DNA from: Escherichia coli
GTDB taxonomy: Bacteria > Pseudomonadota > Gammaproteobacteria > Enterobacterales > Enterobacteriaceae
Length of the DNA: 64,000 nucleotides
NCBI RefSeq assembly: GCF_003790525.1
Contig: NZ_CP033635.1
Reading direction: 5' to 3' (one strand)
Part shown: piece after piece, positions 2,147 through 48,016 of the stretch
How positions within the stretch are numbered: the stretch's first letter is position 1
Layout of the letters: every line of letters begins with the position of its first letter
Program-made: the position numbers and the translations under genes
Notes under the pieces: model-generated
What the model saw: the letters and a program-made list of their open reading frames with translations, nothing else
Told to the model about the DNA's origin: nothing
Databases searched by the model: none

Positions 2147-3685
2147 TTATTGCAAATCTGCGTCTTCAAAGCTGAAGCCGGTGTCTGGCATGATCCAAAA
2201 ACCGGTCAGGTTTTTACTGTGTGCCGACACCAGTTTTTCTACCACCAGCGGGATCCACGGCGACTCTTGCCAGATGATATCCTGCGCCGCCTTATATAAA
2301 CGGGTCTTTTCCGCCGGATCATTAGTTTTTAGTGCCTGAGCCAGGAAGTCATCCACCTGTTTATTGCTGTAAAACGCGGTATTAAACAGCGTTGGTGGCC
2401 AGTTTTGCGAGGCAAACAGCGGCGATAGTGCCCAGTCAGCTTCGCCGGTTGAAGCCGACCAGCCAGTGTAGAACATCCGCACGCCGCTCTCTTTTTGCCC
2501 TTTACCTTCGACTTCTGCCGCCCGCTGTCCGGCATCCATCGCAGTCACCTGGGCTTTAATCCCGACCTGCGCTAACTGCTGCTGGGTAAATTGCAGCACT
2601 TTCTGCGCGGTGCTGTGGTTATGTGACGACCACAGCGTGGTACTGAAACCGTTGGGATATCCCGCCTCTTTCAGTAATTCGCGCGCTTTCACTGGATCGT
2701 AAGGCCACGGTTTATAACTTTGCGCATAGGCGATACTCGGCGGTACCACACCAGTAGCTGGCGTTGCATAGCCCGCGAAGGCCACTTTCACCAGCGCCGG
2801 GCGGTTAATGGCGTAATTCAGCGCCTCACGGACCTTCGGGTTATCGAACGGCTTTTGCGTCACGTTCATACTGATATAACGCTGCATAATTGACGGACTG
2901 GCCATCAACTCGATATTTTTGTTTTTCTCCAGCAATGCGGCCTGCTCGTAAGGAATGGGGAAAGCAAACTGCGCTTCACCGGTTTGTAGCATTGCCGCGC
3001 GGGTGTTGTTATCCGCAACCGGACGCCAGGTTATGCTGTCCAGTTTGGGCAATCCTGGCTGCCAGTAACCCGCGAATTTTTTCACCTTCACAAAATCGGT
3101 CTGATTCCAGGTATCCAGTTCATACGGCCCGGTTCCCACCGGATGAAAACCAATATCCTTGCCATATTTTTCCAGCGCTGCCGGCGAAATCATCGCGGTC
3201 GCCGGATGGGCAAGAATATTAATAAACGCTGAGAACGGCTGTTTGAGGGTAATCTTTACCGTTGTTGGATCGATCGCTTCCGTTTTGGCAATATTCTTAT
3301 ACAGGTTGTAGCGTTTAAGATGATTCGCCGGATCGCTGGCCCGGTCCAGATTCGCTTTTACCGCCGCTGCGTTGAAGTCGGTTCCATCCTGGAATTTAAT
3401 TCCTTCCCGCAGTTTCACGGTGTAAGTAAGGCCGTCATCGGAAACGGTATAACTCTCCGCCAGCACGTTTTTCAGTTTCATCTCTTTATCCAGACCGAAC
3501 AGCCCCTGGTAAAACGATTTCGCTACGGCCTGAGATAACGTGTCATTCGCGTCATATGGATCGAGCGTGGTGAAGTTCGATCCTACCGCCACCACCACAT
3601 CTTTGGCAGCGAATGCACAAGATGCCATCAACGCTGTCGCAATGCCCAGCGCCACTAACCCACTACGGTGTACAGCTCTTGCCAT
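2147..3685 (-). CDS. gsiB: glutathione-binding periplasmic protein GsiB
   Basis: Family-5 substrate-binding protein. Start placed at ATG 3685, giving 512 aa beginning [26 protein letters not shown] (signal peptide). The 601-aa track ORF extends 89 codons into gsiA and is not credible. Confidence 0.93.
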
Positions 3686-39284: not shown

Positions 39285-40147
39285 GCTTAGTCAGCCGTTG
39301 TCTCCGGGTGTCGCGTGCGCAGTTGCACGTCATTCTCAGACGAACCGATGACTGGATGGATGGCCGCCGCAGTCGTCACACTGATGATACGGATGTGCTT
39401 CTCCGTATACACCATGTTATCGGAGAGCTGCCCACGTATGGTTATCGTCGGGTATGGGCGCTGCTTCGCAGACAGGCAGAACTTGATGGTATGCCTGCGA
39501 TCAATGCCAAACGTGTTTACCGGATCATGCGCCAGAATGCGCTGTTGCTTGAGCGAAAACCTGCTGTACCGCCATCGAAACGGGCACATACAGGCAGAGT
39601 GGCTGTGAAAGAAAGTAATCAGCGATGGTGCTCTGACGGGTTCGAGTTCCGCTGTGATAACGGAGAAAAACTGCGAGTCACGTTCGCGCTGGACTGCTGT
39701 GACCGTGAGGCACTGCACTGGGCGGTCACTACGGGCGGCTTCAACAGTGAAACAGTACAGGACGTCATGCCAGGAGCGGTGGAACGCCGCTTCGGCAACG
39801 ATCTTCCGGCGTCTCCAGTAGAGTGGCTGACGGATAATGGTTCATGCTACCGGGCTAATGAAACACGGCAGTTTGCCCGGATGTTGGGGCTTGAACCGAA
39901 GAGCACGGCGGTGCGGAGTCCGGAGAGTAACGGCATAGCAGAGAGCTTCGTGAAAACGATAAAGCGTGACTACATCAGTATCATGCCTAAACCAGACGGG
40001 TTAACGGCAGCAAAGAACCTTGCAGAGGCGTTCGAGCATTATAACGAATGGCATCCGCATAGTGCACTGGGTTATCGCTCGCCACGGGAATATCTGCGGC
40101 AGCAGGCCAGTAATGGGTTAAGTGATAACAGGTGTCTGGAAATATAG
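39242..40147 (+). CDS. insD: IS2 transposase OrfB (InsD; made as an OrfAB fusion by -1 frameshift)
   Basis: 301-aa ORF with a DDE integrase-core domain (…WCSDGFEF…TDNGSCY…NGIAESF…). Confidence 0.93.
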
Positions 40148-40158
40148 GGGCAAATCCA

Positions 40159-40293
40159 CCTGAATCTGAGGCAGCACCTGGCACGGCTGGGACGGAAGTC
40201 GCTGTCGTTTTCAAAATCGGTGGAGCTGCATGACAAAGTCATCAGGCATTATCTGAACATAAAACACTATCAATAAGTTGGAGTCATTACCGT
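40159..40293 (+). mobile_element. IS1 remnant (last ~135 bp including the terminal inverted repeat)
   Basis: CCTGAATCTGAGGCAGCACCTGGCACGGCTGGGACGGAAGTCGCTGTCG...CATAAAACACTATCAATAAGTTGGAGTCATTACC is the 3' end of IS1. It abuts the IS2 right end directly. Confidence 0.88.
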
Positions 40294-40485
40294 GTTCCCG
40301 ACAGACGACTCGGTGAAAAAAGTGGTGTGGCTGGCAATCCAGTCTGCGTCCCAGAAATGGACGATGCCGTTGAAGGACTGGCGAATGGCAATGAGCCGCT
40401 TTATTATCGAGTTCGGTGACCGCCTGGACGGTCACTTCTGAGAAAAGGCATTTACACAGAATCCTAAACAGGCTCATGTACAGCG
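40294..40485 (+). mobile_element. IS256-family remnant (transposase C-terminus plus end)
   Basis: Reads VFPTDDSVKKVVWLAIQSASQKWTMPLKDWRMAMSRFIIEFGDRLDGHF* (stop at 40439-40441), the conserved mutator-type transposase tail. It starts immediately after the IS1 end. Confidence 0.75.
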
Positions 40486-41211
40486 CTGTACCGGGCAATG
40501 GGTAATACCGGTCACAACCGGTAACCCCAGAGACAATGCAACTGTTTTTAACGCAATATACTGGCCGGATGTATCACCCCGGGCAGCCTGAAAACACCTT
40601 TCCACCCGGCATTGTCCGTCAGCACTTATCACCCGCCATGTCTGTTGCAATAAATCCACCCGTTGCGAACATTCTTCATCAACCGTGGCACTGACCCGTG
40701 GATGGCAAATGCTCGTCTGGCTGAGCAGCAACAGGCATCGCATTGTTGCTCCTCCATGTTGTTCCCGCAACCAGCGTAATACCACCGGTGGTGCTGGACT
40801 GGCCGTGTGATTACGTTCAGTAATACGCTCGTGCACCTGTCGGTAAAAGGAAGTACAGAATGCATGAATCTGTTGTCCGTTGATGTTTCCTTCTGCCGAA
40901 TGGAGTGTGAAGTGGACGGCCAGCAGACGCGGCCAGTGATCCACCGCCTGCTGAATAAAACGCCGGATTTCCACCGGCTCTGAAAGTACGGTTTCGGTTA
41001 TTTGCACGATTTGATCCCCTTGAATGTTGCTGAACCGGTGTCGGTACGCAGGAAAGCACGCCGAGACCGGTACGATGCCTGTTACAGCGAAGAACGAGGA
41101 ATGACAGACGGGGGCAGCAGGTCGCCAGCACCAGGGACAGGGCTGATTTCCACAATACCAACGCTGGTATTTTGCACATTGCCAGCGTACCGGCATTACA
41201 ACACGTTTCAT
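40474..41211 (-). CDS. inovirus-Gp2-like (YagK/YfjJ family) protein, paralog 1
   Basis: The segment ...EIRRFIQQAVDHWPRLLAVHFTLHSAEG...FYRQVHERI... is YfjJ/YagK-like. The ATG at 41211 forms an ATGA overlap with the alpA stop. The Cys/Trp-rich first ~60 codons and the C-terminus next to the IS256 remnant make both ends uncertain. Confidence 0.55.
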   Translation of the reverse strand: MKRVVMPVRWQCAKYQRWYCGNQPCPWCWRPAAPVCHSSFFAVTGIVPVSACFPAYRHRFSNIQGDQIVQITETVLSEPVEIRRFIQQAVDHWPRLLAVHFTLHSAEGNINGQQIHAFCTSFYRQVHERITERNHTASPAPPVVLRWLREQHGGATMRCLLLLSQTSICHPRVSATVDEECSQRVDLLQQTWRVISADGQCRVERCFQAARGDTSGQYIALKTVALSLGLPVVTGITHCPVQRCT

Positions 41212-41444
41212 GCTGCTGCCCCTCGTGATGCCTCGATTCGTTGCTGCATCCACTGCTCCACTTCACTTTTGTACCAGCGGCTGCTGCGCCCCAGTTTGAT
41301 GGGTTTAGGGAAATGGCCTTCACTGATCAGCTTGTAAAACCATTTGTCGGTCATACCAGTGAAGCTGGTGATGTAGTTCATGTCGATCAGGGGATCGTCG
41401 GCACGCAGCAATACGCTGTCGTGACCTGTCATTGAGGTCAACAT
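41208..41444 (-). CDS. alpA: AlpA-family transcriptional regulator / excisionase-like
   Basis: 78 aa. ITSFTGMTDKWFYKLISEGHFPKPIKLGRSSRWYKSEVEQWM is the AlpA/phage_AlpA helix-turn-helix signature. The start could be an internal Met. Confidence 0.85.
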   Translation of the reverse strand: MLTSMTGHDSVLLRADDPLIDMNYITSFTGMTDKWFYKLISEGHFPKPIKLGRSSRWYKSEVEQWMQQRIEASRGAAA

Positions 41445-41512
41445 GGTCAGAATGTCCTCTGTGAGATTTATGAATGTTGGGCAAATGCGGGTGAATCTGC
41501 TGAGCTGAGCTT

Positions 41513-42115
41513 TCAGAGCTGGCCTGCTACGGGATACCAGGGATTACCGGCGAGGTAACGGGCTTCCGGATCGCGCACACCACGACGATCGCGGGCGAAA
41601 TCACTGAACGCCCATATCAGCTCTTTGAGTCTCTCTTCGCAGTCCGGTGAACAACTGTCCAGCACCACATCCCGGGTTATCTGTTTCTGGTACGGTGCCG
41701 CTTCACCCGGTGAGGCGAAGCCCAGCACGTTGCTCCAGGCATCCAGAATCAGCCGATCCAGTTCAGGGCCGTCGAAATACTCCTGCCTGACGCACAGCAC
41801 CACGTGGTATTCCGGCTTTTCAGGATGACGTGTCAGGAGCCAGCAGAGGTCACGTCCGGGGGTTGCATTCATCAGGTCACTGACGGTTTCAATAAAGGCC
41901 ATACCGAACCAGGTCCTGCGGCTGCTGAAGGTATTATCGGGTTCCCACGGCAGACGAAGCAGGATACGTCGTATCCGGGAGCCGGACTGCTCACGCAGCG
42001 CACGGTCAAGAACGCCAATAACTTTGTTCTGATACGAGGGCCAGAAGGGTGCCATGCTGTCGTCGAAATAAGAGAAAGTATTCACAGGATATGCTCCGTT
42101 ATGCGCAGCCCACAA
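41513..42115 (-). CDS. inovirus-Gp2-like (YagK/YfjJ family) protein, paralog 2
   Basis: 200 aa. ...RRILLRLPWEPD...YHVVLCVRQEYF... follows the same pattern as paralogs 1 and 3. Confidence 0.6.
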   Translation of the reverse strand: MWAAHNGAYPVNTFSYFDDSMAPFWPSYQNKVIGVLDRALREQSGSRIRRILLRLPWEPDNTFSSRRTWFGMAFIETVSDLMNATPGRDLCWLLTRHPEKPEYHVVLCVRQEYFDGPELDRLILDAWSNVLGFASPGEAAPYQKQITRDVVLDSCSPDCEERLKELIWAFSDFARDRRGVRDPEARYLAGNPWYPVAGQL

Positions 42116-42417
42116 CGCGTCCTGCCCGGGGATGGATGGGCTGACGGGTTACAGGCTGCGGATGAGGTTGATGGAACAGGTGAAGAACCGACGCTGAGCG
42201 GGAATATCAGGGAAGAACATTCAGGGTGAATGAACTCCGTTGACTTCGGTTCACATCATTAAGCAGGGCGGTAAGGTTTTACCGACAGATTGTTTCCGGG
42301 TGCGGAAGCAGATACCGCTGCTGACTTCATGACGGGTTATCAGAATACGGGATAAGGGCATTGGCTGACTCTCTTACCGTGGCATAAGTTCAGGTACCGG
42401 ATACCGTTTTACCGACC

Positions 42418-43149
42418 TCACCTGCCATCCAGCAAACGCCCCGGCCCACGGCTGCAACCATAATTACGCTGACCGGAACCATTATGCTGCTTCGTTTTAT
42501 TTTTCACGAGATAACTGGCTCTGTTCCTGGCTTTCTGCATCGCTGCCACATCACCACGCTTGATCCAGAGAACAGCGGCTTCACCCGGCTTTTTTTCTGA
42601 AGCCTTCCTGGTATCAGAACATCCACCCGACAAAGGCGTGTCATCGGAAGAAGGGCGAGCATCAGACGATGCTGGTTTACGAAAAGGCTTCCACCTGGAA
42701 AAATGGACCAGGCCATCGCCTTGCCAGGGCTCAAGATGCAGAGCGCTGCACCATGCCTCCTGGATCATCGCCGCCAGCGAAGACGGTTCGCTGAAATCCC
42801 CGAGCGAGCACCAGGTATCTTTGTTGAGCAGCAATATCACGTGATAATGTTTCCTGTTTTCTTCCTCTCCGAACTCCCGGCACCAGAAATAACGCAGGCT
42901 GGTTGCATGCACACGCTGACTGGCACGTCGCTTATGCTGCTGGTAAGCCTGGATTTTGGCTTTCAGGGATTCGAAAAAACGAGAAATCACCGCTGAATCC
43001 GGATCGGGATCCATGATGGTGACAGGCATATACTCAGGGAAACGTAAATCCACCCGGATTAACGAGACGGCACGGTGCTGCGACAGGGCACTGTCGAGAA
43101 GGCTGTCAAAACGGGATAACCAGTAAGCATTGTGTATTGGTTGATTCAT
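42418..43149 (-). CDS. inovirus-Gp2-like (YagK/YfjJ family) protein, paralog 3
   Basis: 243 aa. ...VSLIRVDLRFPEY...RYFWCREFGEEENRKHYHVILLLNKD... is the family core. Confidence 0.7.
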   Translation of the reverse strand: MNQPIHNAYWLSRFDSLLDSALSQHRAVSLIRVDLRFPEYMPVTIMDPDPDSAVISRFFESLKAKIQAYQQHKRRASQRVHATSLRYFWCREFGEEENRKHYHVILLLNKDTWCSLGDFSEPSSLAAMIQEAWCSALHLEPWQGDGLVHFSRWKPFRKPASSDARPSSDDTPLSGGCSDTRKASEKKPGEAAVLWIKRGDVAAMQKARNRASYLVKNKTKQHNGSGQRNYGCSRGPGRLLDGR

Positions 43150-44722
43150 GATGAGAGATCTCCGTTGATTTGGATTGACTTCACATCATTAATCACCGCG
43201 GTAAAACTTTACGGCATCATGTCATTAAGCAATGCTACAACTCTCTGATTAAGAGTGATTGAAACGGAACAAACCATCCCGGAACGAAAAGATAATCCTG
43301 CACACAGCAGCAAAACACGCAACAACAGCATGAATGGATTTAAAAACGACATGGACGACGAGAAAAGCCTGAAGGGAAAAGGATCCACAGAACATTCGAA
43401 CAAAACACCAGAAACGCAACCAGAACGCTTCCTGGCAATGCAAATCAACAACAACACCAAAACCTACAGCTTAATCACACAACTCAATCACGAATGCGAA
43501 TGACACGTTTAAAACCTGTTTACAGATAACGTCGTAACAAGATCATCCCCATCAGAATCGATTTTCTTATCTTGAGTATGTTACTTTTCAACATACCTAA
43601 ACGATTAACCACCGATAACGTAAATCTCATCTGAATCAAAACACCAAAACCAATCATCACGTTTTCGACAGAAGAAAAACACCACATCATGACAAAAAGA
43701 ATGACCTTACACGGAAAAGAAAAACGTCAGGAATCGTTAATGCATACCTCAATCTGATTGTTATCAAAACATCCAGAAAGTCGTTTAACAGAATCGTCGT
43801 AAGCACATCGAAAAGAACGTCAGATCACCTCAGGAAAGTTCGGGTTGATTTAGCGTAAAGATACTTTTCTCAGCTTAACGTCGAAACACAAACCAAAAAC
43901 CACAAACAACCAAAGCTCAGGAAAGGTTAAACGTCACATCAGTAAAATCGAATAGCAGATTGATTGCTTAAACAGGAAGGATTGTTTTACAGCAGCATTA
44001 AACTGATTTAGTTAACGTAAAATCAGAACTGACAGGTTTACTAACTTGGATGTGTATCAGTTCAAAAATGTGTACAGCAATGCGTAATGAAACACATTTA
44101 AAGGAGATTAATGGGAAAAGTGTGTAAATGCGTAAACATGCACTAATGAATCACTGAAGGAATACATACAAAACGACTTAATGAAAACATAAAAGGACCT
44201 AATGGAAAAGGTGTATATAATACCATATCCGACATTCTCAACATCTTAAGACATCCATGCAGACTGAATGTTGGTTTCAGTTTTTCACGGTAAGCATGAA
44301 TCTTTTCTGTTCAAAAGCAGAGCAGATTTACTCTGGAATTATTTTTCTTACTCCGTATTCTGTACAGCAAAAACTTGTGCTAACTTTACAGCAAACCATC
44401 ATAATCAGCGTCTGTAGTCCCATCGCTTTACCCCATGAAAGTGAATCCATATGATGCGAGAGAGATAAGTCATCGTATCCGGTAAACACTGCTAACCATA
44501 ACATAAGATCATTCAGTCAGTTTTATCTCTGAACTGACGATTATGGCATGCTCATTTATATGGCTCACAGAGGAGTGTTATTATCTGTAAGCTTTAATCA
44601 TCAAATCACATGACCATACCAAACTGGCGCTATATCAGCTCATTTGACACCCCTTCCCTTTAGATTTCTTTATGTGTTTTTTGTCGATAATTAAAATGTA
44701 ATATGAATTTAATATTTTTACA

Positions 44723-45946
44723 TCATAAACACCATTTAAAACCATTATCCTGAACATCATACAACAATATATTTTTACTAAAGCATGAATTGTATATTTC
44801 TATTAATTCAGGAAAATTATCAGGATTCACCTTTAAATTCACCTGAATGTTACGCCTAATTTCACCCAGCAGTTTTTCATGCGTGAATTTTATTATTTCT
44901 TTATCATAATCTATAAATTCACACATGTTTTTTATGAATTCAAACCCTTTTCCTGTATACAGTTTGATGAATGCCACAAGAGCAAACATTTCAAGATGCA
45001 GCCATAATGCCACGTGAGTTTTTCGCAAAGTATAAAAAATTGAATTCACCTCTTTTTTACTTATTGCTCTTTTGTACTGTGAGTGTGCCAGATTCAGTAG
45101 TGGCAATTCTCTCTCGATAAATGAAAGTGAAAAAGGCGGGTAAATTGATGTCGGAAATATTTTAGGTCTTATGATATTTTCTATTTCCACCATAAATCTA
45201 TCCATAGAAAGAAAATCATTTTCTTTTTTTATTCTGGTATAGAGACCGCCTTTATTTCTTACTGCGACTTTTTTTCGTGCTACCCCCCCCAACACTTCCT
45301 CTAATTGTTTATTTATCTTCGTATCATTAAATACAACCATTCTTCTTATCATCCTGGGAAGGATGATAATATCAGAGCTTGAATCACTTGAACGGTAATT
45401 ATTATTGATCCATGCAACTTCAAGTTGAAGTATCGGAACATTAAATTCTCTGGGGTTAATAACTCTCTGATATTGTTTTTTGTATGCGTTTTTATTAAGA
45501 TATTCTCTGCTGTAGAGAAACTTATAGCAATATAATCTGACAATATCCTTTATGTAAGATTTAAATGAGTCACCTGTAACAGATATATTTTTTCTGCTCA
45601 GTAACTCCTGTGTATTGAGCCATTCCCGTGACCGGAGTACTCCCTTATGAAGACTTTTTCTTACTTGCATTGAACTGCGCAATTGATGTAATATTTTTGC
45701 GTCCTCAACAATTCTCTTTCCCGTTTGATTTCTTGCAGCATCTATTACTCTGTCAAATATCTCCCGGTCCAGACTTTTGTCATATTTACTGATTATACGA
45801 CAAATATTCCTGACCCGACGGTTCTCTTTATTTCGTTTCCATAACTGATAATGATCATCACATAACCTCAGGGCATTTGCCTCATCAAATTCTGAAACAG
45901 GATTGCTGCATTTTTTATTCCGACAGATACCTTTGTTTTTAGCCAT
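44723..45946 (-). CDS. orphan 407-aa protein with an N-terminal CCCH-type zinc-finger-like motif; function unknown
   Basis: Long uninterrupted ORF in a markedly AT-rich segment. The N-terminus is GICRNKKCSNPVSEFDEANALRLCDDHY (C-x4-C-x15-C-x2-H). The rest is Lys/Ile/Asn-rich and predicted helical. I recognise no family. Confidence 0.6.
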   Translation of the reverse strand: MAKNKGICRNKKCSNPVSEFDEANALRLCDDHYQLWKRNKENRRVRNICRIISKYDKSLDREIFDRVIDAARNQTGKRIVEDAKILHQLRSSMQVRKSLHKGVLRSREWLNTQELLSRKNISVTGDSFKSYIKDIVRLYCYKFLYSREYLNKNAYKKQYQRVINPREFNVPILQLEVAWINNNYRSSDSSSDIIILPRMIRRMVVFNDTKINKQLEEVLGGVARKKVAVRNKGGLYTRIKKENDFLSMDRFMVEIENIIRPKIFPTSIYPPFSLSFIERELPLLNLAHSQYKRAISKKEVNSIFYTLRKTHVALWLHLEMFALVAFIKLYTGKGFEFIKNMCEFIDYDKEIIKFTHEKLLGEIRRNIQVNLKVNPDNFPELIEIYNSCFSKNILLYDVQDNGFKWCL

Positions 45947-46046
45947 ACTCTTCTTCCCGTCAATGGAAAATTTTTCACGTCCATATTACCTGACTGAGAG
46001 ACCGGATTAATGTGATCCGGTTCAGTGAAATCAACAGGATACCGGT

Positions 46047-46931
46047 ATGTCATTCAGCCATTCTTCCCTTTCCGCACACGTAAAATCACATCTGACCTTT
46101 CTTCCTGAAGAAATACGCCAGAAAATCCTTGAATATCTTCACAGCGTCATTCAGTACGAACCCGTGATTGGCATTATGGGTAAATCCGGTGCCGGAAAAA
46201 GCAGCCTGTGCAATGCCATTTTTCAGTCCCGTGTCTGCGCCACGCATCCACTGAACGGCTGCACCCGTCAGGCTCATCGTCTTACCTTTCAGCCTGGTGA
46301 ACGCAGAATGACGCTCGTCGATCTGCCCGGCACTGGCGAAACACCACAGCATGATCAGGAATACCGGGCACTTTACCGTCAGTTACTGCCCGAACTGGAT
46401 CTGATTATCTGGATCCTGCGTGCTGATGAACGTGCGTATGCTGCCGACATCGCCATGCATCAGTTTTTACTGAATGAAGGTGCCGATCCCTCGCGTTTTC
46501 TGTTTGTTCTCAGCCATGCTGATCGCATCCACCCGGCTGAAGAATGGAACAGCCAGAGCAACACGCCATCCCGTCAGCAGGAACTCTCACTGGCAACAGT
46601 AACAGCCCGGGTGGCAACCCTGTTCCCTTCATCATTTCCGGTACTCCCCATAGCTGCCCCTGCAGGCTGGAATCTTCCGGCATTTGTGTCACTGATGATC
46701 CACGCCCTGCCACCACAGGCAACCAGCACGGTTTATTCGCATATCCGGAATGAAAAGCGCACTGCGCAGGATCAGCAACACGCACAGCAGGCTTTTGGTG
46801 ACGCCATCGGCCAGAGCTTTGACGCGGCCATTGCCCGGTTCAGCTTTCCGGCCTGGATGCTGCAGCTTCTGCGTAAAGCCCGTGATCGCATTATCCGCCT
46901 GCTGGTCACACTGTGGGATCGCCTGTTCTGA
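46047..46931 (+). CDS. YeeP/YfjP/YkfA-type GTPase (50S ribosome-binding GTPase family), intact
   Basis: 294 aa with a P-loop GIMGKSGAGKSSLCNAIF and a DLPG switch. This is the typical first gene of the CP4-type conserved module. Confidence 0.85.
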   Translation: MSFSHSSLSAHVKSHLTFLPEEIRQKILEYLHSVIQYEPVIGIMGKSGAGKSSLCNAIFQSRVCATHPLNGCTRQAHRLTFQPGERRMTLVDLPGTGETPQHDQEYRALYRQLLPELDLIIWILRADERAYAADIAMHQFLLNEGADPSRFLFVLSHADRIHPAEEWNSQSNTPSRQQELSLATVTARVATLFPSSFPVLPIAAPAGWNLPAFVSLMIHALPPQATSTVYSHIRNEKRTAQDQQHAQQAFGDAIGQSFDAAIARFSFPAWMLQLLRKARDRIIRLLVTLWDRLF

Positions 46932-47116
46932 ATTTCCCCGCTTTTTGACCGGCACAGACGATGACCAGGGAACGCATTTCCGGCGGCTTTACCACAATGC
47001 TGAAGGGCTTTTGGTAAACCTCATTCATTTCATCCATCAGGCAGCGTCTTCTCCGGGAGATGCGGCTTTTTCATTGATTACGTCAGTCAGTCTTAACCAC
47101 TGATAAGGAGCAAAGT

Positions 47117-47935
47117 ATGCGATTAGCCAGTCGTTTTGGTTATGCGAACCAGATACGCCGTGACCGTCCGCTGACACATGAAGAGCTGATGCACCATGTG
47201 CCCGGGATTTTCGGGGAGGATAAGCACACCTCCCGGAGCCGGAACTATACATACATCCCCACCATCACCGTGCTGGAAAGCCTGCAACGGGAAGGCTTTC
47301 AGCCGTTCTTTGCCTGCCAGACCCGCGTGCGTGACCCGGGACGCCGGGGATACACAAAGCACATGCTGCGTCTGCGCCGTGACGGGGAGATAAACGGACA
47401 GCATGTCCCTGAAATCATCCTGCTCAACTCCCATGACGGCACCTCCAGCTACCAGATGCTGCCGGGTTACTTCCGGTTCGTGTGTCAGAACGGATGTGTC
47501 TGTGGTCAGTCTCTCGGAGAGGTGCGTGTCCCGCACCGGGGAGACGTGGTGGACAGGGTCATTGAAGGGGCTTACGAGGTGGTGGGCGTGTTTGACCGGA
47601 TAGAGGAAAAGCGTGATGCCATGCAGTCACTGATTTTACCACCACCGGCTCGTCAGGCGCTGGCACAGGCCGCCCTGACTTACCGTTATGGTGACGAACA
47701 TCAGCCCGTCACCACCGCCGACATTCTGACACCACGACGCCGGGAGGATTACGGTCAGGACCTGTGGAGTGCTTATCAGACCATCCAGGAGAATATGCTG
47801 AAAGGCGGGATTTCCGGTCGCAGTGCAAAAGGAAAACGTATCCATACCCGGGCCATTCACAGCATTGATACCGATATAAAACTCAACCGCGCATTGTGGG
47901 TGATGGCAGAAACGCTGCTGGAGAGCATGCGCTGA
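47117..47935 (+). CDS. DUF932-family protein (YfjQ/YafZ-like)
   Basis: 272 aa. MRLASRFGYANQIRRDRPLTHEELMHHVPGIFGEDKH...LLNSHDGTSSYQ matches YfjQ/YafZ. Confidence 0.85.
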   Translation: MRLASRFGYANQIRRDRPLTHEELMHHVPGIFGEDKHTSRSRNYTYIPTITVLESLQREGFQPFFACQTRVRDPGRRGYTKHMLRLRRDGEINGQHVPEIILLNSHDGTSSYQMLPGYFRFVCQNGCVCGQSLGEVRVPHRGDVVDRVIEGAYEVVGVFDRIEEKRDAMQSLILPPPARQALAQAALTYRYGDEHQPVTTADILTPRRREDYGQDLWSAYQTIQENMLKGGISGRSAKGKRIHTRAIHSIDTDIKLNRALWVMAETLLESMR

Positions 47936-48016
47936 TGCCGTTTCCCTGAGTGAGGGAATCATTCAGCTTTCGTTCCTGAAAAACACACATTTATTTGTTA
48001 TTTAAGGAGTTATCTC

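Follow-up and report, generated by a model that had tools for sequence, protein, structure and literature searches.

A strand-asymmetric non-coding tract conserved beside the cargo slot of a common Escherichia coli island family

Layout of the island and extent of the tract

The 64-kb window, which is the whole stretch of Escherichia coli DNA that we analysed, carries a tRNA-associated island in which a backbone tract of ~1.2 kb (43150–44345) lies between two divergently arranged gene modules. The leftward module consists of a Gp2-like Rep gene, a 190-aa gene and AlpA, and to the right of the tract come a cargo slot and then the GTPase, DUF932, antirestriction, RadC and CbeA/CbtA genes. We read the island as an integrative element of the CP4/PAI type; it encodes HUH Rep-like and AlpA-like proteins, an integrase and an antirestriction/RadC/CbtA module. 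A frameshifted gene of the ProQ/FinO family also lies near the tract, within the island. The genes and segments around the tract are as follows.

42418–43149, minus strand: 243-aa ‘inovirus Gp2 family’ gene, HUH Rep-like, whose start codon abuts the tract
43150–43336, no strand assigned: segment I, Gp2-proximal, matched by blastn (query 1–187) in all E. coli variants, including the 55989 type
43337–43625, plus strand: segment II, the most A/C-rich and G-poor segment (A 0.40, C 0.25, G 0.15, T 0.20)
43626–44345, no strand assigned: segment III, backbone non-coding DNA, 67–90% identical in all E. coli variants, ending at the cargo junction GGAATTATTTTT
44346–44722, minus strand: segment IV, flanking the 407-aa cargo gene on its 3′ side, part of the variable cassette 44346–45970
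44723–45946, minus strand: orphan 407-aa cargo gene, GC about 33%
46047–46931, plus strand: YfjP/YeeP-like GTPase gene (Pfam MMR_HSR1, reference annotation), which opens the rightward backbone module

The initial annotation had drawn the non-coding region as 43150–44722. Its first part, 43150–44345, is conserved backbone, but the remainder (44346–44722) is part of the cargo cassette and in other islands is exchanged along with the 407-aa gene. Against islands with other cargo, homology stops at 44344–44360 and resumes at 45970, while islands with the same cargo align straight through. At its far end the tract meets a cargo-exchange hotspot, of which it forms the left junction; both junctions are sharp and lie at 44345 and 45970. 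Direct repeats around the cassette (TGGAAWWWTTTTTC) were set aside, being found only with the 407-aa cargo, and the only sequence common to both junctions, ATTTTT(C), is too short to be interpreted. The 407-aa protein itself matched neither Pfam nor PADLOC.

The tract is compositionally extreme, and the description of its plus strand as A/C-rich and G-poor holds: 43250–43949 is A 0.417, C 0.237, G 0.154 and T 0.191. The interval 43250–43950 has the strongest A+C versus G+T asymmetry of the 64 kb at the 300-, 700- and 1200-nt scales, and skew plots place both the top 300-nt GC skew (−0.416) and the top AT skew (+0.512) of the window within the tract. The dominant asymmetry is A over T, with strong C>G skew confined to about 43376–43700, and overall GC is 0.37 as against 0.50 for the whole window. 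Read on the minus strand, in the sense direction of the Rep gene, the tract is T-rich and C-poor (G>C, T>A). Fourfold-degenerate sites in the neighbouring genes are not consistently skewed, and we therefore rejected an island-wide mutational bias acting on single-stranded DNA as the source of the tract’s skew.

Coding potential, conserved blocks and repeats

The tract contains no convincing open reading frame, as first noted. The longest reach 82–83 aa from GTG or TTG starts, none is conserved on either strand, and the 82-aa frame has no Pfam match. A 57-aa ORF annotated by PGAP at 43330–43503 has its frame broken by indels in diverged homologs, and four nucleotide differences between the window and homolog L002, read from the alignment, produce three amino-acid changes in it. 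Because no ORF is conserved, we rejected the idea that either strand encodes a small protein, including a type I toxin. More generally, ORFs differ among homologs, and the tract has neither the conserved frame nor the similarity to known proteins that would mark a gene or pseudogene. Searches with tblastn gave no signal in the tract for a decayed copy of the 270-aa, 322-aa or 176-aa genes that flank or interrupt the equivalent gap elsewhere, and there were no matches to the tract among 50,697 phage records.

The adjoining 243-aa protein matches Pfam YagK_YfjJ_C (1.9e-37) and REP_ORF2-G2P (2.3e-7) and carries an HUH motif (HYHVILLL) and a tyrosine motif (YLVK). Among 19 homologs with identities as low as 43%, neither the tyrosine nor the lysine varies, and the two histidines hardly do. 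Its only K-12 relatives are YagK and YfjJ, at about 29–30% identity; K-12 yagJ, of the same length, was ruled out as an ortholog by tblastn, and the K-12 CP4-6 and CP4-57 regions gave no match to the tract. A search of genome contigs with a single protein returned only two matches, in mis-binned E. coli-like contigs.

Conservation within the tract is concentrated in a block next to the Rep gene and in three internal blocks, which are significantly more conserved than the remaining tract. These blocks, together with two sets of short repeats, are listed here.

43150–43218, minus strand: near-invariant control block (91% of columns invariant; P = 4.5e-11 relative to the background of the tract)
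43399–43430, plus strand: conserved block 1, holding AACACCAGAAA at 43404–43414
43443–43492, plus strand: conserved block 2, holding AACACCAAAAC at 43453–43463
43599–43661, plus strand: conserved block 3 (84% invariant columns, P = 3.5e-7), holding AACACCAAAAC at 43640–43650
43528–43935, plus strand: five AACGTC copies, starting at 43528, 43723, 43816, 43877 and 43930, neither significant family-wise nor conserved
44040–44230, plus strand: degenerate short-repeat array of TAATGRRAA-like units in the window

The control block comprises a Shine-Dalgarno GGAG (43160–43163), GATTAATGATGTGAA (43180–43194) and the imperfect palindrome GGTAAAACTTTACGG (43200–43214, 5+5). A second copy of the block lies at 42232–42282, upstream of the 190-aa gene. 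The core of the block is also conserved ahead of Gp2 homologs in five other genera (Enterobacter, Serratia, Rouxiella, Brenneria and Providencia), and a sigma-70 consensus was not found in 43150–43218. DNA folding of 43150–43270 on the Gp2-sense strand was unremarkable (z = −0.29), and no known nick motif was recognised in the block. Further in, the 11-mer AACACCARAAM occurs in three same-strand copies that are its sole exact matches in the 64 kb, and in both clades most homologs have two or three of these copies at unchanged positions.

The short motifs that had first drawn attention fared less well. All five AACGTC copies lie exactly where reported, on the plus strand, and against a local expectation of 0.53 they give a single-motif P of about 2e-4; measured against the top-scoring 6-mer in every shuffle, however, the family-wise P is 0.12. 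The hexamer is absent from five diverged homologous tracts, with three copies in close homologs, and was rejected as a binding motif on both counts. A degenerate 28-nt repeat scored 25 in alignment versus a mean of 25.7 in dinucleotide shuffles of the same 700 nt (P = 0.6) and was likewise rejected, and the best self-alignment within 43250–43950 reached P = 0.08. For these two motifs, base composition alone essentially accounts for the enrichment. They are not functional sites; protein binding is better sought in the control block beside the Rep gene, in the conserved, A/C-rich blocks 1–3 and in the array at 44040–44230.

The distal array is itself variable. Among homologs it spans 145 to 248 nt with variable copy number and is built of 13- and 24-nt units (AAAATACTTAGTA) whose sequence differs between clades, and in the window it retains only one 18-nt pair at 83% identity. 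A TATAAT hexamer (44216–44221; TATAGT in homologs) follows it without a −35 element. A link between the TAATG units and the promoter-proximal motif TTAATGATGTGAA was rejected, as the two lie in opposite orientation, with no enrichment in the window and no conservation in homolog arrays.

Occurrence and divergence among islands

Conservation among related islands, on which the initial annotation had made its case depend, was found: the tract occupies the same position in 1877 of 5426 complete E. coli genomes (35%), in every case with the 243-aa Rep-like gene on one side and, on the other, a variable cargo slot backed by the GTPase, DUF932, antirestriction, RadC and CbtA module. At least 80% of its 1.2 kb is present in 1346 genomes. 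A genome can have up to eight copies, the complete E. coli genomes together have ~3300, and synteny with variable cargo holds at twelve E. coli loci and across genera. The only perfect tract matches labelled O157:H7 were 86-24 and ATCC 43888; Sakai and EDL933 were absent among the 60 best records listed. All homologs, at 76–87% identity and in both clades, keep the composition (A 0.40–0.42, G 0.14–0.17). The same position in 35% of genomes and a composition kept across ~24% divergence therefore justify treating the tract as a real feature of the backbone.

Four blocks apart, the tract evolves at about the synonymous rate: its identity between clades is 0.76–0.87, close to the 0.72–0.78 at fourfold-degenerate sites of the GTPase gene. 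Frame-breaking indels are tolerated within it, as are an expanded (CATCAC)n microsatellite, an inserted IS2 and a gene cassette of 1154 nt, which replaces segment II in 55989-type islands and brings a 176-aa plus-strand ORF (cassette variants L007, L011, L017 and L018). Gp2 allele clades and tract clades occur in all four combinations.

Outside E. coli, the islands of Enterobacter and Serratia have non-coding gaps of 1.4–1.7 kb at the equivalent place, skewed in the same direction without sequence homology. A shorter (0.4–1.1 kb), unskewed gap takes this place in Rouxiella, Brenneria and Morganellaceae, so that neither length nor skew is essential to the element class; in relatives from Providencia and Morganellaceae it measures only ~400–450 nt. 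A plus-strand gene of 176 or 270 aa sits at the Gp2 end in 55989-type E. coli, Enterobacter and Serratia islands, and in those islands plus-strand transcription enters the region.

Candidate functions of the tract

We tentatively favour a reading in which the tract is the control and spacer region of the integrative element, an AT-rich untranslated buffer that is probably silenced by H-NS and Rho and that doubles as a homology arm of the cargo hotspot; we hold this as a possible account, well short of an established one. The first ~70–190 nt would be the promoter, operator and ribosome-binding region of the Rep-like gene, a control module that would be reused before the next gene and kept across genera, and the remaining ~1 kb would act through bulk properties and not exact sequence. 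The AT-rich DNA would be of the kind coated by H-NS, and a plus-strand transcript of the untranslated tract, predicted to be nearly unstructured and locally richer in C than in G, would for that reason be a good Rho substrate. These features might keep both modules and the cargo insulated and transcriptionally silent while the island is integrated, and the ~1 kb of conserved homology could allow cargo cassettes to be swapped by recombination.

H-NS targets AT-rich, horizontally acquired DNA, and Rho terminates C-rich, unstructured, untranslated RNA; we infer the involvement of both from composition only. The tract has the AT content, well above average in acquired DNA, that characterises H-NS-silenced regions, and related islands carry H-NS-family or Hha-like proteins of their own. 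Like AT-rich island intergenic regions silenced by H-NS and Rho, it is untranslated, lies between divergent operons at GC 0.37 against 0.50, and is in part unstructured with C over G. It differs from them in its unusual length (1.2 kb) and in its strong A>T skew on one strand, which duplex-binding H-NS does not need. Nucleoid-protein silencing, suggested from the start, fits the AT-richness but leaves the strand asymmetry unexplained, and the A>T asymmetry is in fact explained by neither H-NS nor Rho. Bent DNA through phased A-tracts was rejected, since A/T tracts in the tract show no 10–11 bp periodicity (family-wise P = 0.34 to 0.85).

As for Rho, a rut site is at least ~80 nt of untranslated, weakly structured RNA with C over G, and plus-strand 43376–43700, with a GC skew of −0.36 to −0.42, is of this kind. 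It resembles Rho-dependent terminators in being C-rich, G-poor, unstructured and untranslated, although a rut site extends ~80–100 nt and only part of the 1.2-kb tract qualifies. Folding of the plus strand across 43300–43750 yields only −12 to −17 kcal/mol per 150 nt, and its z-scores stay close to 0. A C/G ratio of at least 1.5 is reached in 35% of the tract’s 78-nt windows versus 19% window-wide (opposite strand, 12%), but other places in the window score as high and the tract is not the most rut-like. No conserved plus-strand sigma-70 promoter feeding the tract was found, and promoter-like sites within it are not in excess (7 against 11 expected). Moreover, the conservation of the three internal blocks and the recurring 11-mer exceeds what a purely bulk-property spacer needs.

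It is unlikely that everything beyond the proximal control block is instead functionless, a decaying filler whose skew is a historical or mutational residue and which persists because islands are young, recombine frequently and hitch-hike with selected cargo. Divergence at about the synonymous rate, the tolerance of indels, microsatellite, IS and cassette insertions, motifs at chance level, no detected structure and the shorter, unskewed gap in other genera would all agree with filler. Yet bacterial genomes delete useless DNA, and ~1.2 kb has been kept at similar length in two 24%-diverged clades and in 1346 genomes, with its unusual composition maintained in both clades, its three internal blocks significantly more conserved than the rest, and independent long gaps of the same skew direction in Enterobacter and Serratia. 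That the tract is transcribed as a long non-coding RNA or untranslated leader is a little less likely still; in its favour, strand asymmetry matters for RNA and not for duplex DNA. The leader would be a U/G-rich, C-poor minus-strand 5′ region of the operon of Gp2, the 190-aa gene and AlpA: G>C with T>A is the signature expected of a sense, non-template strand, and C-poor RNA would, we infer, escape Rho over 1.2 kb. The near-invariant block that immediately precedes the Gp2 start and recurs ahead of the following gene instead suggests a promoter near the gene and not 1.2 kb away. Alternatively, an A/C-rich, unstructured plus-strand RNA could be a protein-binding or sponge platform, for instance through its AACACCARAAM sites; the conserved, single-strand-oriented 11-mer in three copies, the plus-strand transcription entering the region in 55989-type E. 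coli, Enterobacter and Serratia, and the nearby frameshifted ProQ/FinO-family gene speak for a transcript. The structured RNA or leader once proposed drew support from neither folding nor Rfam: cmscan of 40000–48000 at E ≤ 1 gave only a chance miRNA match outside the tract, 150-nt windows across the backbone tract on both strands had z-scores of −1.9 to +1.5, not below shuffles, and a known RNA family or structured RNA was accordingly rejected. No conserved promoter or terminator was found, terminator-like hairpins are weak and unconserved, and evolution runs at about the neutral rate; the tract may still give rise to an unstructured transcript.

That the tract is a replication or transfer origin of the adjacent HUH Rep-like protein, with nick and binding sites in the proximal palindrome, the AACACCARAAM copies or the distal array and an AT-rich unwinding or enhancer region, is improbable. 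On this view the circle formed by excision of the island would replicate by the rolling-circle mode, or be mobilised, from the tract, with the T-rich, C-poor strand repeatedly exposed as single-stranded DNA. Origins usually adjoin rep genes, as in RCR plasmids, Ff phages and the SaPI/PICI ori, and here the abutting gene encodes an HUH motif and catalytic tyrosine with a REP_ORF2-G2P match, and across genera the tyrosine does not vary and the histidines scarcely do. The variable-copy array, the 11-mer conserved in three same-strand copies and the T-rich, C-poor Rep-sense strand, as in replicons with an ssDNA phase, point the same way; and while we found no paper on the tract itself, one preprint covers the element class and describes HUH rolling-circle initiators in it (PMC12458937). 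Against an origin, there is no hairpin or structure signal (in RNA on both strands of the tract, or in DNA on the Gp2-sense strand of the proximal block); inspection of the sequence and alignment, not a formal scan, revealed no Ff-, phiX- or geminivirus-like nick motif, conserved DnaA box or GATC cluster; the skew is not consistent at the neighbours’ fourfold sites; and Providencia and Morganellaceae relatives manage with ~400–450 nt. The proposed iteron-like sites for Gp2-like proteins gain nothing from AACGTC or the 28-nt repeat, and are weakened by the free recombination of Gp2 alleles and tract types, unlike cognate Rep–iteron pairs. Although, as in plasmid oriV and SaPI/PICI ori, an AT-rich non-coding tract with a variable short-repeat array adjoins an initiator-like gene, iterons are at least three direct repeats of ~17–22 bp, above chance, at regular, roughly helical spacing, in an array that is conserved and co-varies with its initiator. 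The tract’s repeats, which lie ~900–1100 nt away from the gene, are degenerate in the window, irregularly spaced and clade-variable. Neither DnaA boxes nor a 13-mer-like unwinding element were seen, and the neighbour, whose alleles do not co-vary with the tract, belongs to the HUH endonucleases and not to the iteron-binding Reps or helicases. The Ff intergenic region, with its gpII origin and A+T-rich enhancer, offers a parallel in pairing an ‘inovirus Gp2 family’ HUH initiator with a long non-coding tract, and as in ssDNA phages the initiator-sense strand is T-rich; the Ff region, however, is about 0.5 kb and dominated by large hairpins, whereas the tract’s hairpins do not exceed shuffled controls, no gpII-like nick sequence was seen and phage structural genes are absent.

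Beyond the silenced-spacer reading that we favour, we consider it very improbable that the tract is a functional element set by composition and not sequence in a very common HUH-Rep/AlpA island family. In one version it would be a strand-specific initiation zone for rolling-circle replication or transfer, with the T-rich, C-poor strand as the single-stranded DNA and AACACCARAAM as recognition points; in another, it would be a 1-kb Rho-controlled switch for the antirestriction/RadC/toxin–antitoxin module and the cargo once the island has been excised or has entered a new host. Roughly one complete E. coli genome in three has islands of this type, often more than one, and their cargo includes virulence and resistance functions and probably defence. 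No other conserved non-coding piece of the backbone is as large as the tract, which directly borders the cargo-exchange slot, and its nature, whether silencer or insulator, origin or transcript, would tell how these islands stay quiet and swap cargo.

Setting and coding content of the tract

The gene layout around the non-coding tract is the backbone of CP4/PAI-type integrative elements, of which SRL PAI is an example (PMC6980539). A 2025 preprint (PMC12458937) depicts this class as prophage-like: its elements carry an integrase and an AlpA-like excisionase, together with HUH rolling-circle initiators and a RadC/ArdB/CbtA ‘moron’ module; the tract is absent from the text of both papers. The closely related pheV-associated island of E. 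coli HCM-24C-3 is 99.7% identical to the window region and annotated beside tRNA-Phe. ARAGORN found 0 tRNA genes in the window (1-64000), so the attachment end of the island lies outside it, unless window and reference diverge there.

Genes around the tract
Leftward, minus strand: YagK/YfjJ-domain gene; AlpA-family gene; 190-aa hypothetical gene; 243-aa ‘inovirus Gp2 family’ gene
42418-43149, minus strand: the 243-aa gene (Gp2 gene), directly before the tract
44723-45946, minus strand: orphan 407-aa gene, after the tract
Past the 407-aa gene, plus strand: YfjP/YeeP-like GTPase, DUF932, antirestriction protein, RadC, DUF987, CbeA/CbtA, DUF5983, DUF4942

As the initial annotation held, the tract contains no credible gene: its longest ORFs (82-83 aa) start with GTG or TTG, no ORF on either strand is common to the homologs, and the frame of a 57-aa PGAP ORF (43330-43503) is destroyed in diverged homologs by a 12-nt deletion and substitutions. 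The A/C-rich, G-poor character of its plus strand is likewise real and exceptional. The composition of 43250-43949 is A 0.417, C 0.237, G 0.154 and T 0.191, and at the 300-, 700- and 1200-nt scales no other windows of the 64 kb equal those starting at 43201-43401 in A+C versus G+T asymmetry; the most extreme 300-nt values of GC skew (-0.416) and AT skew (+0.512) fall there too. Because 4-fold sites of neighbouring genes showed no consistent skew, this asymmetry is local to the tract.

The short motifs first read in the tract did not survive comparison with shuffled sequence. All five reported AACGTC copies were confirmed, against 0.53 expected locally (P ~2e-4 for that single word), but the family-wise P was 0.12 once each shuffle was represented by its best 6-mer, and five diverged homologs carry no copies. 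A proposed 28-nt degenerate repeat gave an alignment score of 25, against a mean of 25.7 for the best self-alignment once the same 700 nt were shuffled (P = 0.6). With both at chance level, and with gene absence, length and skew upheld, the tract stands and the specific motif claims behind it are without support.

Anatomy, cargo slot and distribution

The interval divides as follows when set against twelve E. coli loci and two E. coli-like contigs.

Segments of 43150-44722
43150-43336, Segment I: in every variant; first 69 nt 91% invariant
43337-43625, Segment II: most A/C-rich piece; swapped for a 1154-nt cassette in a common variant
43626-44345, Segment III: 67-90% identity kept in all variants; terminates at invariant GGAATTATTTTT
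44346-44722, Segment IV: outside the backbone

Islands with other cargo lose homology at 44344-44360 and regain it at 45970 (76 nt short of the GTPase start), whereas islands sharing the 407-aa gene align without interruption through Segment IV. Segment IV thus varies with the cargo, so the interval initially taken as one tract holds as backbone over 43150-44345, its far end being the left cargo-slot junction, and not over 44346-44722, where homology to other-cargo islands stops. The slot (44346-45970) is a cargo-exchange hotspot with sharp junctions that have ATTTTT(C) in common, and at least four alternative cassettes occupy it across other E. coli islands.

Cassette types in the slot
407-aa orphan gene
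376-aa and 84-aa pair
262-285-aa (plus strand) with 316-328-aa (minus strand) pair, in two junction variants

No slot cassette had a Pfam or PADLOC match, making them candidates for unknown defence or accessory functions. The 1154-nt cassette variant (strain 55989 and others) encodes a 176-aa plus-strand ORF in place of window 43337-43625 (L017:4670-5200, L018:4670-5200 and L011:3671-4201 in the compared islands). This ORF also had no Pfam or PADLOC match; its C-terminal half looks like a candidate Myb/SANT-type helix-turn-helix domain.

Conservation in related islands was found on a wide scale. The tract matched 1877 of 5426 complete E. coli genomes, with at least 80% of 1.2 kb in 1346, at 3300 places in total (maximum 8 per genome; 3 on plasmids); carriers include O157:H7 strain 86-24 and ST131. 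Only 4 Escherichia plasmids in PLSDB carry it, and no match was found in 50,697 phage records. It is absent from the K-12 CP4-6 and CP4-57 regions, where only relatives of the Rep-like protein occur (~29-30% identity).

Synteny extends to Enterobacter, Serratia, Rouxiella, Brenneria, Providencia and Morganellaceae, which share a Gp2 gene then AlpA, divergent from the GTPase, DUF932 and antirestriction module; a 319-330-aa gene stands first in that module in several of them. The non-coding stretch in between measures roughly 0.4-1.7 kb. In Enterobacter and Serratia the 1.4-1.7-kb gaps (L020:2217-3902, L022:1343-2765) are gene-free, AT-rich and, like the E. coli tract, poor in G on this strand (G 0.12-0.17, GC skew down to -0.37). 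No homology to that tract was detectable in them, so a long skewed spacer may have originated, or been kept, independently there. Gaps in Rouxiella, Brenneria and Morganellaceae are shorter and without skew. The long skewed spacer is therefore recurrent, not obligatory for the class.

The Gp2 protein and the proximal, putative control block

The 243-aa protein carries three HUH-endonuclease motifs (RVDLR, HYHVILLL, YLVK), with the Tyr and Lys invariant and the two His nearly so across 19 homologs (down to 43% identity), and also matches REP_ORF2-G2P. A Ser/Pro-rich insertion of ~45 aa is missing from the 189-195-aa homologs of other genera. Amino-acid identity among E. coli alleles (0.84-0.97) is equal to or below 4-fold-site identity, which suggests relaxed or diversifying selection.

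The ~55 nt leading up to the Gp2 start contain, in order, an imperfect palindrome GGTAA-N4-TTACG, TTAATGATGTGAA and TCAACGGAG.

Repeats near gene starts
43157-43212 and 42232-42282: ~55-nt module (imperfect GGTAA-N4-TTACS inverted repeat, TTAATGATGTGAA, TCAACGGAG), before the Gp2 gene and the 190-aa gene
46001-46021: perfect inverted repeat with 7-bp arms, ACCGGAT-TAATGTG-ATCCGGT, conserved in all E. coli homologs; the GTPase start codon follows 25 nt downstream

Gp2 homologs of five other genera (Enterobacter, Serratia, Rouxiella, Brenneria and Providencia) also have the module core 5′ of the gene. A promoter, operator and RBS unit would be the simplest reading of the module, though it departs from the sigma-70 consensus. 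The loop and arm of the 46001-46021 repeat are similar to the GATTAATGATGTGAA motif of this control block.

Divergence and possible functions

The tract falls into two clades ~24% apart (identity 0.76-0.83), close to GTPase 4-fold-site identity for the same pairs (0.72-0.78) and more diverged than Gp2 4-fold sites (0.87-0.97). Many indels are not multiples of three, one genome has (CATCAC)8.8 expanded at L004:5394-5446 (equivalent to window ~43540), indicating that the tract tolerates slippage, and another has IS2 inserted. Together with the cassette, these observations argue that sequence-level constraint is weak overall, as would suit decaying filler. We consider that reading rather doubtful; all homologs keep the tract’s length and composition (A 0.40-0.42, G 0.14-0.17), and four blocks (43150-43218, 43399-43430, 43443-43492 and 43599-43661) are significantly more conserved than the rest. 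Each of the three internal blocks holds one AACACCARAAM on the plus strand, and the 64 kb has no further exact match; two or three positions are kept in most homologs of both clades, although this motif was defined post hoc from the same data and is not significant by count alone. The plus strand of 43300-43750 is nearly unstructured on folding. A long unstructured non-coding RNA or leader seems unlikely: Rfam gave no match, folding z-scores on neither strand went beyond shuffles, promoter-like sites were not in excess (7 versus 11 expected), and terminator-like hairpins were weak and without conservation. An origin for the HUH protein, suggested by the adjacent Rep-like gene, is less likely still; the proximal block folded as DNA gave no hairpin signal, and all four combinations of Gp2 allele and tract clade occur, so gene and tract recombine freely.

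As the best-supported reading, we tentatively infer that 43150-44345 is an intergenic part of the island backbone that combines control and spacer roles. The first ~70-190 nt would control the Rep-like gene, and the remaining ~1 kb would act through bulk properties. H-NS prefers AT-rich DNA and could bind here; related islands encode their own H-NS or Hha paralogues, and no helical phasing of A-tracts was found in the tract. As an untranslated template whose plus-strand RNA is unstructured and locally C>G, the tract might also promote Rho termination, and cargo cassettes could exchange by using it as a conserved homology arm. Strong rut-like character is confined to about 43376-43700, the dominant skew, A>T, is not accounted for by a control and spacer region, and the three internal blocks, being conserved, point to something more specific than a bulk-property spacer.

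No description of the tract was found in the searched literature. It is real, widespread and extreme in composition, a non-coding part of the backbone in a known class of E. coli islands, and its significance would rise above modest were an origin or Rho-controlled switch shown by experiment.
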